DNA of 64,000 nucleotides from Deltaproteobacteria bacterium (GTDB lineage Bacteria; SAR324; NAC60-12), in the NCBI GenBank assembly GCA_038150265.1, contig JAYOTF010000006.1:6909-70908 (forward strand), written 5' to 3'. The translations under genes were made by a program, and so were the position numbers. This document shows positions 1 to 64,000 of the stretch, piece by piece (position 1 is the first letter of the stretch; each line of letters starts with the position of its first letter). The notes under the pieces are model-generated. The model did no database searches and was not told the DNA's origin. It worked only from the letters and a program-made list of their open reading frames with translations.

Positions 1-823
1 CTTCCGGACTGAGGCCGGACGCTCGGTGGAGCAGACCCTCAATGAGCTGGGTGCGGCCATCAAGGACGCGAACCTCAACATTGACCTGGTCCGCCCTGAT
101 CCTGCTGTAACGGACAACAATGCGCCTCAGGCCATTCGACTCCGACACAAGGAGTACGGCAGCGAGCATACCTTCACCGTGGCCAGCTCCACGGCGGGCG
201 TGCTGTCGCAGCAGGGCAATGTTTCCGACAAGATTGCCAATGGGGTCGACATCGCTGGTGAAATCAACGGTGAAGATTCAACCGGGAAGGGCCAGGTCCT
301 GACCGGAGGCCCAGGTGCCAATGGCATTGAAGGCATCAAGATTCGCTACACCGGAGAAGCGACGGGTAATGTCGGAACCCTGACCTTCTCGCAAAATTCA
401 CTGAATTTCCAGATTGGTGGAAATGCGAACCAAATGACCTCAGTTTCCATGAAGTCGGTTCGCGCCTCACAGCTTGGAAATGCGGTTCAGAATGAGTCCG
501 GGTTCCGCTCCTTGAATGAAGTCAAGGTGCTGACCACCGCTCAGGCTCAGGATGCGATCAAGGTGATCGACCGAGCCATTGACGAGGTGGCCTCCACCCG
601 GGGAGAAATGGGAGCGTTCCAAAAGAACACCCTGGAGAGCAACCTGAACTTCCTGCGCATTGCGCATGAGAATGTTCAGGGTTCGGAGTCGGTCGTTCGT
701 GATGCCGACATGGCCAAGGAAATGGCTGACTTCACCAAGAACCAGATCATGGTTCAGTCCAGCATGGCGATGCTTGCTCAGGCCAACCAAAGCCAGCAGA
801 ACGTACTGCGCCTGCTCGGATAA
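1..823 (+). CDS. fliC: flagellin, copy 1 (5'-truncated by window edge)
   Basis: C-terminal flagellin D0/D1 signature RGEMGAFQKNTLESNL...ESVVRDADMAKEMADFTKNQIMVQSSMAMLAQAN; near-identical to the two downstream copies. Confidence 0.95.
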   Translation, partial: FRTEAGRSVEQTLNELGAAIKDANLNIDLVRPDPAVTDNNAPQAIRLRHKEYGSEHTFTVASSTAGVLSQQGNVSDKIANGVDIAGEINGEDSTGKGQVLTGGPGANGIEGIKIRYTGEATGNVGTLTFSQNSLNFQIGGNANQMTSVSMKSVRASQLGNAVQNESGFRSLNEVKVLTTAQAQDAIKVIDRAIDEVASTRGEMGAFQKNTLESNLNFLRIAHENVQGSESVVRDADMAKEMADFTKNQIMVQSSMAMLAQANQSQQNVLRLLG

Positions 824-834
824 TGATGAGTGAT

Positions 835-856
835 TCGGCCTCCTGAGGGAGGCCGA
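835..856 (+). terminator. GC-rich stem-loop after flagellin 1 (weak terminator or mRNA stabiliser)
   Basis: Perfect 9-bp stem tcggcctcc-tgag-ggaggccga, 11 nt after the stop; only a weak T tract follows. Confidence 0.5.
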
Positions 857-863
857 CCAGTTT

Positions 864-59624: not shown

Positions 59625-59626
59625 AA

Positions 59627-60058
59627 TCAAGCGCTAGGGGTAAGGTCGGCATGGAGTATCTGGAAGTCAGGCGGGAACTCAGGACGACCAGAGGGATTGA
59701 GAACGGTCCCGGTAATGCGGGCCCAGACAATGGGGTGAGGGGCACTCTCTCGAACGAGCGTTTGCAGGAACACAAACTTGACACGACTGAGGGCTTCCAC
59801 TGCAAGCGTGACCAAAAAGCGATCTCCGCTTCGCAGTGAATGACGGTAGGCCACTTCGGCATGAGTGACCACCGGGGCGTATCCCTGCTGATACAGAGAG
59901 TCGAGATTGATGCCGCGAGACTGCAGATAAACGTGGCGTGCATGCTCGAGGTAATTTTGATAAACCGCATTGTTCACCACCCCAAAGCGGTCCAGCTCAT
60001 AATCCCGAACTTCCAACTCCAGGCGAAAGCAAGGGGGAAGTTCGGGATAACGTGCCAC
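59627..60058 (-). CDS. acyl-CoA thioesterase (4HBT/YbgC/FadM-like)
   Basis: VRDYELDRFGVVNNAVYQNYLEHAR, LRSGDRF. Confidence 0.9.
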   Translation of the reverse strand: MARYPELPPCFRLELEVRDYELDRFGVVNNAVYQNYLEHARHVYLQSRGINLDSLYQQGYAPVVTHAEVAYRHSLRSGDRFLVTLAVEALSRVKFVFLQTLVRESAPHPIVWARITGTVLNPSGRPEFPPDFQILHADLTPSA

Positions 60059-63000
60059 TTAGGCCTCAGCGCTCAGAGACTCTTCTGAGCCCTCGTCTTC
60101 CGTGGCGATGCTGATGCTGGTTTCGTCCCGGATTTCGGCAAGAATCGCGTCATCTGCCGGTTGAGCCTCTTCTGCTTCCTGACGCTTGCGCAGAGCGCTT
60201 GGGTCAATGGCACCGTTCAACTCGTAGTTGACGTTGCGGAAGAGCTTGTATCCGGTCCCTGCCGGGATGAGCCGTCCGAGGATGACGTTTTCCTTGAGTC
60301 CCCGGAAGGTGTCGGTCTTTCCAGCCAGTGCCGCATCCGTGAGGACCTTGGTGGTCTCCTGGAAGGAGGCAGCCGAGATGAAGGAATCCGTGCTCAGGGA
60401 CGCCTTGGTGATGCCGAGCAACTCCGGTTTGGAAACCGCCGGACGCATGCCACGCTCCAGCAGGTCCCGGTTCTGCTCTGCGACCTCGTTGCGGGAAACG
60501 ACTTCCCCGGCGAGGAAGGTGCTGTCTCCTGGATCTTCGATGCGGACCTGACGGAGCATCTGGCGGACAATGACCTCAATGTGCTTGTCATTGATGCCGA
60601 CCCCCTGGAGGCGGTAGACCTGCTGGATCTCGTCCACGAGGTACTTCTGCAGCTCCTTGGTGCCCTTGACGGCGAGGATGTCTTTCGGGTTGGGAGAACC
60701 ATCGATGAGGGGGTCTCCGGCGCGGACAAACTCTCCGACGTGGACGGTGACGTGGCGGCCGCGCGGAATCAGGTACTCCTTGACCTCTCCGCGTCCATCG
60801 TCCGGACGGATGCGGATGCGCTGCTTCTTCTTCATCTCCGTGTCGAACTCGACGATGCCATCGATCTCACTGATGATCGCCTGATCCTTGGGCACCCGTG
60901 CTTCAAAGAGCTCGGCAACCCGTGGAAGTCCACCCGTGATGTCCTTGTTCTTGGCCAGTTCCCGAGGAATCTTGGCCAGGATGTCGCCGGCATGAACCTC
61001 TTGGCCGTCATTGACCACCAGCTCGGCCTTGGTCGGCAGGCTGAACTCAGCCGGTGTGCCGTTGTCCCGGACATTAACCGGACCATTGGCGCTGGAGGCA
61101 ATGAGGAGCATGGGGCGGTGTTCCGGGTTCGTCGGCTCCTGAATCACCTTCCGGGAGACGCCGGACACTTCGTCTACCTGCTCCTTGAAGGTCTCGCCTT
61201 CCCGGAGATCCTGGTAGCGAATGACACCAGAGACGTCCGTCAGGATCGGGACCGAGAACGGATCCCACTCGGCCAGGAGGTCACTTTGGGCCACCTTCTC
61301 ATTTTCTGAGCGGCGCAGGATCGTGCCCAGCGGAAGCGGACGGCGCTCACGCTCGCGGCCATTTTCATCAACGATGATCGCTTCCCCACGGCGTCCAAGG
61401 ACCACGAGGTTGCCGTCTCGGTTGATGGTCTCCTTGAGGTCCCGGAACTTGAGGATGCCGCTGAAGCGGGCTTCCCAGGTGTTTTGCTCAGCGAGTCGGC
61501 TGGCGGTTCCACCAATGTGGAAGGTCCGCATGGTCAGCTGAGTTCCCGGCTCGCCGATGGACTGGGCGGCAATGACGCCGACGGCTTCCCCGATCGTCAC
61601 GAGGCGGCCACGGGCCAGGTCGCGTCCGTAGCAGAGGCGGCAGACGCCACTTTCCGACTGACAGGTCAGCACCGAGCGGATCATGATGCGCTCAATGCCG
61701 GCTTCCTCAATGAGGTCCTTCTCGATTTCCGTGATCTCGGTTCCGGACTCCACCAGCACTTCCTGGTCCTTGTCCGGGTTCATGATGTCTTCCAGCACCA
61801 CCCGTCCCAGCACCCGATCTCCGAGGGACTCAATGATCTCTCCGGATTCGATCAGCGCCGACATCTCAATGCCGTCAATGGTGCCGCAGTCTTCTTCAAG
61901 GATGACACAGTCTTGAGACACGTCCACCAGACGACGGGTGAGGTAACCGGAGTTGGCGGTCTTCAGCGCGGTGTCTGCCAGACCCTTCCGGGCGCCGTGT
62001 GTGGAGATGAAGTACTCCATCACGTTCAGGCCTTCCCGGAAGTTTGCCTCAATCGGGGTTTCAATGATCTCTCCAGATGGCTTGGCCATCAGGCCTCGCA
62101 TGCCAGCAAGCTGCTTCATCTGCTGGTTCGAACCCCGGGCGCCGGAGTCGGCCATCATGAAGATCGAGTTGACCTTGCTGTAGCCGCTGCCGTCTTCAAT
62201 TTCCTGAGAGAGTCCGGAGGACATGCTTTCGGCAATCTTCTCCGTGGTCCGGGCCCAGATGTCAATCACCTGGTTGTAGCGCTCACCGTCGGTGATCAGA
62301 CCTTCCTGGTGCTGAATGTTGATCTGGTTGACGCGCTGCTGGGCATCGGAGAGCAGCCCGGCTTTTTCGGCGGGGATGACCATGTCGTCCATGCTGATGG
62401 AGAAGCCGGCGCGGGTGGCATAGGTGTAGCCGATGCGCTTGATTTCATCGAGCATCCGGACGGTTTCCACACTCCCGGCCCGTCGGAAGGCAACGTCGAC
62501 CAACTCGGCCATCTGCTTCTTCTTCAGGTGCCGGTTGATGAAGGAGAACGGAACGGCTTCCGGAATCACCATCGCAAGCAGGACGCGGCCGACGGTGGTT
62601 TCCACGAGCTCCTGGTTGCTGCCACGCTCCAGGCGGACCTTGATCTTGGCGTGCAGGTCAACCTTGCCATGGTCAAAGGCTGTTTGCACCTGATCCGGAT
62701 TGGAGAACAGCTTGCCTTCGCCCTTGGCTCCTTCACGCTCGCGGGTGATCCAGTAGAGCCCCAGGACCATGTCCTGAGAGGGCGTCATCACCGGCTTTCC
62801 GTTGGCTGGTGACAGCACGTTGTTGGTGGCCATCATCAGAATCTTGGCTTCCAGCTGAGCCTCCACCGACAGCGGCACGTGGACCGCCATCTGGTCGCCG
62901 TCGAAGTCGGCGTTGAATGCCGTACAGACGAGCGGGTGCAGCTGAATGGCCTTGCCCTCGGTGAGCACGGGCTCAAAGGCCTGAATGCCGAGGCGGTGCA

Positions 63001-64000
63001 GGGTTGGGGCGCGGTTGAGCAGCACGGGGTGCTCCTTGACCACTTGCTCCAGGATGGCATACACCTCCGGAGGGTTTTCCTCGAGGCGCTTCTTGGCCAT
63101 CTTGATGGTGTGGACCTCTGCGTAGTCGATCAGCTTGTGGAAGATGAAGGGCTTGAAGAGCTCGAGGGCCATCTTCTTCGGGAGGCCACACTGGTGGATC
63201 TTCAGAGACGGACCCACGACGATCACGGTTCGTCCGGAGTAGTCCACCCGCTTTCCGAGCAGGTTCTGGCGGAAGCGGCCCTGCTTGCCCTTGAGCATGT
63301 CGGAGAGCGACTTGAGCGGGCGCTTGTTGGAGCCCACCATCGGGCGACCGCGACGGCCGTTGTCAAACAGCGCGTCCACCGATTCCTGGAGCATCCGCTT
63401 CTCGTTCTTGACGATGATCTGCGGGGCCCGGAGCTCCAGCAGGCGCTTGAGGCGGTTGTTGCGGTGAATGACGCGGCGGTAGAGGTCGTTCAGGTCGCTT
63501 GTGGCAAACCGTCCCCCTTCAAGCGGAACGAGCGGGCGCAGCTCCGGAGGGAGCACCGGGAGGTTGTCGATGATCATCGAGTCCACGGTGTTGCCGGAAT
63601 TGAGCAGGTCGCTGACAATCTTCAGGCGCTTGACGACCCGCTTGCGCCGGGTCTCTGAGGAAATTTCCTTCAGCTCTTCGCGGAGGCGGTTGTCTTCCTC
63701 TTCGAGGTCGATGCGGCGGAGCAGGGTCCGGACGCTTTCGGCGCCCATGCCAAGCTCGAGGTCCGGATGGGCTTCCTTCAACTCGCGGACTTCCTCTTCG
63801 TCCACAAGCGAGAGGGGCTCGCGGTCGCTGCTTCCGGGGTTGAGGACGATGTAGGCGTCATAGTACAGCACCCGTTCGATGTCCCGGAGGGTCATGTCGA
63901 GGAGGGTGGAGATGCGGCTGGGAACGCCCTTGAGGAACCAGACGTGGGAGACCGGAGCCGCCAGCTTGATGTTCCCGAGGCGCTCGCGGCGGACCTTGGA
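60059..64000 (-). CDS. rpoC: RNA polymerase beta' subunit (5'-truncated by window edge)
   Basis: [49 protein letters not shown]. Confidence 0.99.

Follow-up and report, generated by a model that had tools for sequence, protein, structure and literature searches.

TCCGGA is a highly iterated, helically phased palindrome in genomes of a SAR324-type bacterial phylum

Highly iterated palindromes (HIPs) have been a puzzle for thirty years and are known essentially from cyanobacteria. For HIP1 (GCGATCGC), the available text of Xu et al. (2018; PMC5861425) reports selection on the word, conserved sites and a periodicity of 10-90 kb, and the term "helical" appears nowhere in that text. The accessible portion of Elhai (2015; PMC4390886) describes alternate HIPs in single cyanobacteria (GGCGCC, rCCGGy and GCsGC) and finds a matching methyltransferase for every one of them; it puts forward a ratchet driven by methyl-directed repair to account for HIPs, and does not mention TCCGGA. 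Here we describe TCCGGA, a palindrome that recurs throughout a 64,000-nucleotide stretch of a SAR324-type bacterial genome (hereafter the window; positions 6909-70908 of contig C6, JAYOTF010000006.1, of assembly GCA_038150265.1) and throughout the genome it comes from (G000). Our preferred reading, held tentatively and with a probability of roughly 0.45, is that TCCGGA is a chromosome-wide recognition word read by a putative protein, and does not arise incidentally from composition, from codon usage or from a mobile repeat. The original prediction of this signal, made from the window, knew of no published description; our literature search, which had subscription journals and supplementary files outside its reach, likewise turned up no account of TCCGGA as an iterated word or of TCCGGA in SAR324.

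Three other classes of short word provide points of comparison. The uptake sequences of Pasteurellaceae (uptake signal sequences, USS) and Neisseria (DNA uptake sequences, DUS) are 9-12 nt long and non-palindromic, occur in thousands of copies (~1-3 per kb) at permissive positions within genes, and are lineage-specific and evenly spread, with a deficit of close pairs and a fast turnover of positions; we know of no helical phasing among them. In the GATC/Dam/SeqA system of Escherichia coli, SeqA requires a pair of copies facing the same side of the helix, and GATC itself occurs near chance frequency. In the CCWGG/Dcm/Vsr system of enterobacteria, biased repair raises the frequency of the methylation site modestly.

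The window contains 197 copies of TCCGGA (3.1 per kb), or 9.5 times the 20.7 sites expected from composition, which places the word first among the 64 palindromic hexamers, with CTGCAG second at 3.1 times; 100 dinucleotide-preserving shuffles gave a mean of 24.95 (standard deviation 4.83, maximum 37), and none reached 197. Two palindromes of equal composition, AGGCCT and TCGCGA, number 27 and 3. Density is 3.17 per kb in coding and 2.34 per kb in non-coding DNA. The hand counts behind the original prediction were accurate: a recount again gave 25 copies in positions 1-7100, with no TCGCGA and one AGGCCT there (at 6964), and 12 in the rpoC portion (60059-64000), and the naive expectation of about 0.3 per kb compares with a computed ~0.32. 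The coding sites fall in all three codon phases (35/49/96, by our own gene calls), and the one-off variants TCCGGG and CCCGGA are common (136 together), both as had been described. TCCGGA is written even into a gene as highly conserved as rpoC (Table 1).

Homologues of one G000 protein bear source names that put the genome among SAR324-cluster bacteria. Over the whole of G000 (87 contigs, 3.39 Mb, 61.3% G+C, completeness 97.8%), TCCGGA is the commonest of the 4,096 hexamers, with 9,711 copies (2.86 per kb) and an observed/expected ratio (O/E) of 8.67 against composition. The next words by O/E, TTCCGG and CCGGAA (4.87), are both overlaps of it, and no hexamer other than its own overlaps comes near its excess. 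Under Markov models of orders 0 to 4 its O/E is 8.67, 7.57, 3.95, 2.39 and 1.22, and it ranks first of 4,096 by count and by O/E at orders 0 and 3. The order-4 value lies in the range of 1-2 at which, according to the original prediction, the enrichment would count as explained by pentamer composition, yet the order-4 z-score of TCCGGA (49.7) is the highest of all hexamers, and this control is not independent, because 54% of TCCGG pentamers lie within TCCGGA (next base A). The core CCGG stands at 1.36 times its expectation and the half-sites at 1.4-2.3 times, NCCGGN words without the T or A flanks are depleted (0.66-0.89; ACCGGT 0.66, GCCGGC 0.68), and the full site stands at 8.67 times: the signal belongs to the full hexamer.

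The gene map of G000 (2,702 genes covering 88% of the genome) was made with our own codon-usage caller, and its start sites are approximate. On this map, 89% of the sites lie in genes, with densities of 2.93 per kb in coding and 2.39 per kb in non-coding DNA. The non-coding part holds 1,059 sites where composition predicts 138; enrichment there is 6.2- to 7.7-fold, and TCCGGA ranks first at Markov orders 1-3. Within genes, shuffling codons gene by gene with the protein sequence and codon counts kept (20 replicates) predicted 2,106 ± 44 sites against the 8,717 seen, so that the word remains at 4.1 times its expectation beyond synonymous codon choice. These 8,717 sites occupy 41% of the 21,314 positions that the proteins permit; codon usage would give TCCGGA in 8% of Ser-Gly cases, where the actual share is 33.5%, and 81% of Val-Arg-Thr cases are encoded with the word. 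Some of the dipeptides are themselves over-used, with Pro-Glu at an O/E of 1.65 (top of 400), Ser-Gly at 1.41 (seventh) and Pro-Asp at 1.34. The reversed dipeptides Glu-Pro (0.82) and Gly-Ser (1.04) are not over-used, and the dipeptide excess is therefore more likely an effect than a cause of the word; it suggests that the pressure on TCCGGA may also bend protein sequence. Outside the hexamer, no flanking position carries more than 0.08 bit; YTCCGGAR is weakly preferred, and no 12-mer occurs more than 57 times. TCCGGA is therefore not a dispersed repeat of the repetitive extragenic palindrome or miniature inverted-repeat transposable element (REP/MITE) kind, since no conserved sequence extends past the core and most copies are genic. 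An artefactual origin of the signal, in codon, dipeptide or oligonucleotide composition or in a family of dispersed repeats, might lean on the order-4 O/E of just 1.22 and on the over-use of Pro-Glu and Ser-Gly, but the shuffling, flank and non-coding results already refute it, and together with the order-4 z-score and the unremarkable Glu-Pro and Gly-Ser they leave it a negligible probability.

The sites are spread in a manner close to Poisson (29.1 ± 5.7 per 10 kb in 557 windows); density is roughly halved at less than 60 bp from a gene start and level beyond that. As a palindrome that is the top hexamer of its genome, even over coding and non-coding DNA and specific to certain lineages, TCCGGA behaves in the HIP1-like manner first proposed for it. 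Some islands carry a third to half of the usual density (contig C61 as a whole, C34:1-15000, C63 and C6:85000-95000); those on C61, C34 and C63 code for accessory, surface-type products, among them Big_5/Calx-beta, FecR and Omp85 proteins, a sensor kinase and a 3,484-residue open reading frame (ORF) without a Pfam family. They are possibly recently acquired or fast-evolving, variable DNA, and prove nothing.

What distinguishes TCCGGA from a merely abundant word is the spacing of its copies. Gaps between neighbours are near exponential (coefficient of variation 0.98), but gaps below 30 bp are depleted (391 against 807). We used a null in which protein sequences were kept and permissive positions were filled randomly with class-specific probabilities (300 simulations); against it, pairs 6-29 bp apart number 336 where 573 are expected, and pairs 11-17 bp apart 51 where 195 are expected. 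The periodogram peaks at 10.5 bp with a power of 47.5, a value reached in none of the 300 simulations (maximum 14.0), and the preferred distances, at ~10.5k - 0.9 bp, are detectable to ~300 bp. Among the 356 most abundant hexamer classes, TCCGGA has a power of 56.8 and the second word 12.3, and three of the next four words overlap TCCGGA. In-phase coding pairs outnumber out-of-phase ones by 1,965 to 1,515. The A/T composition near the sites has no 10.5-bp component, and a general bending code was rejected on that ground. The phasing is a statistic of the whole genome. It implies that copies interact, which pure mutation bias does not explain.

The register of this phasing differs between lineages. 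Over the 88 genomes of a phylum survey (numbered G, with genera as g and families as f), we compared counts of pairs 41-43 bp apart with counts of pairs 46-48 bp apart. The shorter distances prevail in G000 (129:52) and its congener G002 (67:39) of g1, in G032 (79:14), G033 (47:24), G037 (64:23), G039 (72:28), G012 (29:7) and G046 (39:12) of g11, and in G005 (36:7) of g4. The ratio is inverted in G061 (7:47), G062 (10:68) and G063 (0:33) of g19, and in G001 (22:57), a further member of g1. Taking the random expectation as N^2/L x 3 (our own arithmetic, with genome sizes rounded), pairs at 41-43 bp are 2.2- to 3.6-fold above random in g11 and G005 and nearly forbidden in g19, where G063 has 0 against ~23 expected. 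Spacing spectra from 400-kb samples of three relatives gave, for G062, a period of 10.4 bp with peaks at d = 5.7 mod 10.4 (reached by 0 of 500 permutations), which is half a turn out of register, and for G002 a period of 10.75 bp with an offset of 7.4 (8 of 500 permutations). A period of ~11.0 bp with an offset of ~4 in G001 is unestablished, being reached by 95 of 500 permutations, and only the 22:57 contrast stands for that genome. The copies thus favour the same face of the helix in G000, G002, g11 and G005, the opposite face in g19, and a different register again in G001. Since orthologous proteins share their structural periodicities, a protein-level cause is excluded by the finding that sister lineages have opposite registers.

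A weak and pervasive pressure holds TCCGGA at ~41% of the protein-permissive positions and at near-equal density in non-coding DNA, and the genome maintains the number of sites and their mutual register, not their exact positions. Neighbouring copies prefer a fixed angle around the helix, with disfavoured angles strongly avoided. If TCCGGA is a recognition word, a contiguous 6-bp palindrome would suit a reader of the restriction-modification type, either a compact dimer or a methyltransferase-like protein, whose bound copies may touch or bridge one another along the DNA. The function would be chromosomal and not one of gene regulation, perhaps compaction, or a marking tied to replication or segregation as with Dam and SeqA on GATC.

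With AGGCCT as the composition-matched control palindrome, TCCGGA ranges over the 88 genomes from ~30-fold enriched to ~100-fold depleted. Enrichment is strong (at least 1 per kb) in g1 (2.2-2.9 per kb), g19 (1.4-2.3), most of g11 (up to 2.1, in a genus that ranges down to 0.12) and G005 of g4, and weak in g3, g6, g10 and some genera of family f7; g2 (9 genomes), g5, g8, g9 and most of family f2 are neutral. The word is nearly gone from G081 and G083-G087 of f7 and from G017, G015, G020 and G067-G068, as in G087 (15 TCCGGA to 1,435 AGGCCT), G084 (25 to 1,728) and G083 (31 to 1,584), these three counts coming from 3.1-3.4 Mb, as well as in G086 (76 to 1,619) and G017 (133 to 987). Lineages of one phylum treat TCCGGA in opposite ways, and the depletion is probably the mark of a TCCGGA-specific restriction system or of decay driven by 5-methylcytosine (m5C).

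Many restriction enzymes of the CCGG family are tetramers that need two sites. A restriction-modification conflict, in which TCCGGA-specific enzymes would circulate in the phylum, a two-site looping enzyme would shape the spacing by making some rotational settings dangerous and abundance would have a separate cause such as an orphan methyltransferase, would fit this near elimination, a classical sign of restriction; it would also fit the full C5 methyltransferase present in 5 of the 6 hyper-depleted f7 genomes and the nearly forbidden distances of g19. A threatened genome, however, should lose sites and not hold 9,711 of them, and favoured distances well above random in g11 and G005 mean attraction, not only avoidance. 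No member of the Bse634I/Cfr10I (PF07832) or NgoMIV (PF09015) families was found in G000, although these searches gave nothing in control genomes either and so show little. We regard such a conflict as very unlikely.

No C5 methyltransferase (PF00145), Vsr or MutH was found in G000 at its 97.8% completeness, nor was there a match to N6_Mtase (PF02384). Among the enriched genera, PF00145 is absent or fragmentary in g1 and g11, where g11 has fragments only, and Vsr is absent from both; in g19, PF00145 was found in 0 of 3 genomes and Vsr in 1 of 3. The products of deamination are not depleted, with an O/E of 2.57 for TCTGGA/TCCAGA and 1.34 for TTCGGA/TCCGAA and order-4 ratios of 1.11 and 1.12. 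These results bear on a mutational ratchet, or biased mismatch repair, that turns one-off variants into a functionless TCCGGA. The methyl-directed repair model for HIPs, as set out in the available text of Elhai, lends it a precedent (PMC4390886). Most numerous are the variants in which the CCGG core is intact (16,613, compared with 5,449 and 10,021 for the two inner positions, on both strands), as HIP1 variants are likewise biased to outer positions in the same source (PMC4390886), and a genome-wide bias would fit fast turnover at a constant number of sites. Beyond the missing enzymes and undepleted deamination products, a local bias does not predict site-to-site phasing or a lineage-specific register, and we consider this explanation quite improbable. 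Of the mechanisms that the original prediction had entertained, a protein-bound word is favoured by a 10.5-bp phasing that is specific to TCCGGA, and methylation or repair of the Dcm/Vsr or MutH type is unsupported.

A cognate methyltransferase common to every enriched genome was not found either: G032, at 87% completeness, has no match to PF00145, PF01555 or PF02086, and the specificities of such enzymes are unreadable from sequence. G032 does have weak PF02384 matches in two ORFs of 807 and 941 residues that no other member of its genus carries (Table 1), which are possibly type IIG or BREX-like enzymes. In G000, 26 of the 2,702 predicted proteins have an [SDN]PP[YFW] motif. Seven of these were scanned and set aside, namely RlmL, PrmC, MinC, transport proteins, a GTPase and a 1,028-residue ORF without a family. 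Two G000 proteins, encoded on contigs C45 and C51, have a motif IV of the SPPY form, which is typical of N4-cytosine enzymes. BspEI, AccIII and Kpn2I are enzymes of TCCGGA. The modified base of M.Kpn2I was not obtained from PMC6237814, whose main text contains no occurrence of TCCGGA, N4-methylcytosine (m4C) or m5C. The C45 methyltransferase was rejected as a driver of the enrichment, having a full orthologue in G001 only and a 45-residue remnant in G002 (7,726 sites), and it is accessory. It stands head to tail with a retron-type reverse transcriptase (NCBIfam retron_St85_RT, 3.9e-59) and a 311-residue ORF without a family, itself being a 258-residue protein of the beta class, in what is probably a defence island.

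Individual sites turn over quickly, and their number is kept up more than their positions. In comparison with G002 (82% identity over 381 kb), 50.2% of the sites are shared against a median of 31.8%, which ranks TCCGGA 145th of 1,461 hexamer classes, with 14-41% shared for one-off variants and 29% for AGGCCT. For G001 (194 kb at 74% identity) the shared fraction is 33% and the median 19%, and independent re-filling would give similar sharing; conservation against G001 was rejected as a test because synonymous sites are saturated at that identity. Since each genome fills ~40% of its permissive positions, much of the sharing could be independent re-filling.

Fast turnover is also to be expected of an uptake or transformation signal, by which cells would favour DNA bearing the (possibly methylated) word and molecular drive would spread it. 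A 2024 preprint (bioRxiv 2024.09.10.611283) reportedly proposes such a role for HIP1, as a signal for transformation or uptake that depends on methylation. ComEC, the competence channel, occurs in G000 and across the phylum (73 of the 88 genomes, and 35 out of 35 of high quality), and the even spread and close-pair deficit, together with the turnover, are what drive per recombination tract would produce. For HIP1, transformation is raised in a homology- and methylation-dependent way and an uptake role is hypothesised in the available part of a 2026 paper (PMC13756078), a proposal similar to the one considered here. ComEC is, however, equally present in neutral and depleted lineages and does not track the trait; being there whatever the status of the word, it was rejected as a discriminator. 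A 6-bp word gives little specificity, and drive predicts neither the 10.5-bp phasing nor the forbidden half-turn distances nor the flipping of the register. G032 has the trait without any PF00145, PF01555 or PF02086 match or a C51 gene, its two weak PF02384 matches apart. We judge an uptake signal improbable. None of the three rivals, uptake drive, biased repair or restriction conflict, accounts for the phasing, and a protein reader whose bound copies interact is the best supported explanation.

The sole concrete candidate for that reader is the C51 protein, an orphan protein resembling amino-methyltransferases of the alpha class, and we think it unlikely that TCCGGA is in fact what it reads. 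Its gene is cut by a contig end in G000 and has orthologues in 53 of the 88 genomes, being core to families f1 and f2; source annotations name the family "DNA adenine methylase" or "DNA modification methylase". The protein carries the motifs DPFMGGG (motif I) and SPPY (motif IV) and matches PF01555 at 4.5e-9. A sequence search against solved structures gave weak matches (E ~1e-4). Its structure model has a pLDDT (predicted local distance difference test) of 91.7, and the nearest folds are split among the tRNA N2-methylguanosine (m2G) methyltransferase Trm11, E. coli Dam, AviRa and DpnM, at template modelling (TM) scores of 0.34-0.38 by query length. In an alignment of 32 orthologues, motif IV is SPPY in 11 of 11 neutral or depleted genomes (three of g2, one each of g5 and g9, six of f2). 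Among enriched lineages it is SPPY in g1, SPPF or SPPY in g11 (10 genomes), CPPY, NPPY or RPPY in g19 and RPPL or RPPF in g4, and among weakly enriched ones APPA in g3 and HPPL or NPPM in g6. The orthologues of g2, g5 and three f2 genomes lack a charged N-terminal tail of R/D/E/P repeats, which measures ~70-140 residues in g11, ~130-155 in g19 and ~195-300 in g1; in G002 it is a polyampholyte of ~340 residues with some 25 EDRPRR/EDRPRY units. On this pattern of motif IV and tail, the protein retains its catalytic signature where the word is not enriched and is altered where it is enriched. Three g11 genomes, G032, G036 and G045, show a clean deletion of the gene between conserved neighbours, and G036 and G045 have also lost the enrichment (0.16 and 0.12 per kb).

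Several observations weigh against a protein-read word, and against the C51 protein as its reader. Abundance alone cannot tell selection from biased gene conversion, the two being formally equivalent at equilibrium. Non-coding pairs taken by themselves lean toward the same phasing without significance (173:149 and 84:62), and no phasing is visible inside the 64-kb window (26 in-phase and 31 out-of-phase pairs). The modelled fold of the C51 protein is not separable from those of tRNA m2G methyltransferases, which makes a DNA or a tRNA substrate ambiguous. G032, from which the gene has been deleted, still carries 1.49 sites per kb with the strongest phasing of all (the 79:14 above). G032 and G036 are sisters with 96% support in a quick tree of one neighbouring gene, which suggests one old loss of the C51 gene, after which G032 kept the trait. 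The gene is intact, with a canonical motif, in the neutral genus g2, and it is absent from 19 of 19 f7 genomes, some of them mildly enriched. Few independent events, all on one tree, underlie the association between protein features and enrichment.

A more far-reaching proposal, which we consider possible though doubtful, is that an oligomerising chromosomal protein docks at the sites and builds a chromatin-like scaffold on the DNA, and that the geometry of this scaffold switched between sister lineages, whose genomes were rewritten accordingly. The scaffold protein may be the order-wide C51 protein, which in several lineages would have lost its catalytic motif and gained a long polyampholyte tail, and the rewriting would reach codon choice and even dipeptide usage. 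If true, a sequence-specific nucleoid protein would be served by a rotational code spanning the genome, something undescribed in bacteria.

The coordinates of the window features, and of the loci discussed above, are collected in Table 1. The flagellin sites are paralogous copies and not all independent. Three sites had been placed in spacers by the original prediction: the one at 40288 is non-coding, and those at 10924 and 10965 fall in the first 70 codons of the longest dnaB ORF, upstream of the DnaB domain, and may well be in a spacer, as first read. The evenly spaced triplet at 28394-28525 could be a 21-residue protein repeat or a set of phased sites.

Table 1. Positions of TCCGGA sites, window genes and other loci; positions without a contig label are those of the window (1-64000), aa stands for amino acids.
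Feature	Position	Strand	Remarks
TCCGGA sites	1..64000		180 in 47 predicted genes, 17 non-coding (window gene map)
rpoC (RNA polymerase beta-prime)	60059..64000	-	Pfam RNA_pol_Rpb1 domains 1-5; 12 TCCGGA sites
rpoC sites	60801, 61742, 61841, 62213, 62455, 62559, 62694, 63066, 63233, 63543, 63727, 63762
Two tandem flagellin paralogues, 484 + 485 aa	984..4019	+	Flagellin_N/C in both ORFs
Flagellin-paralogue sites	1479, 1618, 2112, 2269, 2664, 3060, 3199, 3850
Flagellin pair with following FG-GAP gene	984-7321		1,091-aa FG-GAP repeat protein after the pair, on the opposite strand
Longest dnaB ORF	9570-11093		DnaB N-terminal domain begins at residue 71
Two sites, 41 bp apart (four helical turns minus one base)	10924..10970		dnaB leader or first codons
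Three sites, spaced exactly 63 and 63 bp (six turns each)	28394..28525		within the gene at 26569-28644 (minus strand; 691 aa)
Two non-coding sites, 19 bp apart	35826..35850		at 35826 and 35845
Intergenic-spacer site	40288..40293		between a gene ending at 40271 and a gene starting at 40323
C51 methyltransferase-like gene	G000:C51:2-1387
C45 methyltransferase gene	G000:C45:2844-3620
C45 retron and methyltransferase cluster	G000:C45:1438-4562		L001 35-3159
Weak PF02384 matches in G032	G032:C33:35317-35865; G032:C69:4742-5170		L146, L147; in the 807- and 941-aa ORFs
Charged tail of the G002 C51 orthologue	L015 451-1485

TCCGGA provides an independent case of a highly iterated palindrome in an abundant, uncultured ocean phylum. 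The opposite spacing rules of its lineages and the elimination of the word in relatives are natural contrasts for locating the responsible gene by comparative genomics, and one genus, g11, offers gene-loss variants with and without the trait. The pressure fixes synonymous codon pairs, as in Val-Arg-Thr, and possibly dipeptides, which matters for codon models, for the detection of horizontal transfer and for binning. Should the reader protein exist, bacterial chromosomes would have a sequence-specific organiser of a new kind.

Among known systems, TCCGGA resembles uptake sequences in copy number, density, permissive genic positions, even spread and lineage specificity, whereas USS and DUS are longer and non-palindromic, and ComEC does not track TCCGGA. 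With GATC and SeqA it shares one respect only, that of a short chromosome-wide palindrome read by a protein needing copies on the same face, and GATC, unlike TCCGGA, is not in excess over chance. The effect at CCWGG is modest, and G000 has neither the C5 methyltransferase nor the Vsr of that system, nor a depletion of deamination products. Like rCCGGy of Oscillatoria PCC 10802, TCCGGA is a 6-bp palindrome with a CCGG core, rCCGGy having replaced HIP1 as the dominant word of its genome according to the available text (PMC4390886); the flanks are R...Y there and strictly T...A here, where ACCGGT and GCCGGC are depleted. The alternate HIPs have, in that same text, a matching methyltransferase in each case (PMC4390886), and HIP1 is accompanied by the methyltransferases DmtA and DmtC, whereas no methyltransferase is common to all TCCGGA-enriched genomes. 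The likeness to HIP1 is otherwise broad, as far as the accessible parts of the two HIP1 papers go: both are short, G+C-rich palindromes, hyper-abundant in coding and non-coding DNA, lineage-specific with exceptions within the clade, biased to outer positions in their one-off variants, maintained in number and unsettled in function (PMC4390886, PMC5861425). HIP1 is an octamer of cyanobacteria with reported O/E values of 15-300, and TCCGGA is a hexamer of a SAR324-type phylum with an O/E of ~9. The reported periodicity of HIP1, in the available text, is 10-90 kb (PMC5861425), and that of TCCGGA is 10.5 bp with a lineage-specific register. TCCGGA is thus an iterated palindrome in a new phylum, with a helical phasing and a shift of register between sister lineages that are unreported for HIP1.

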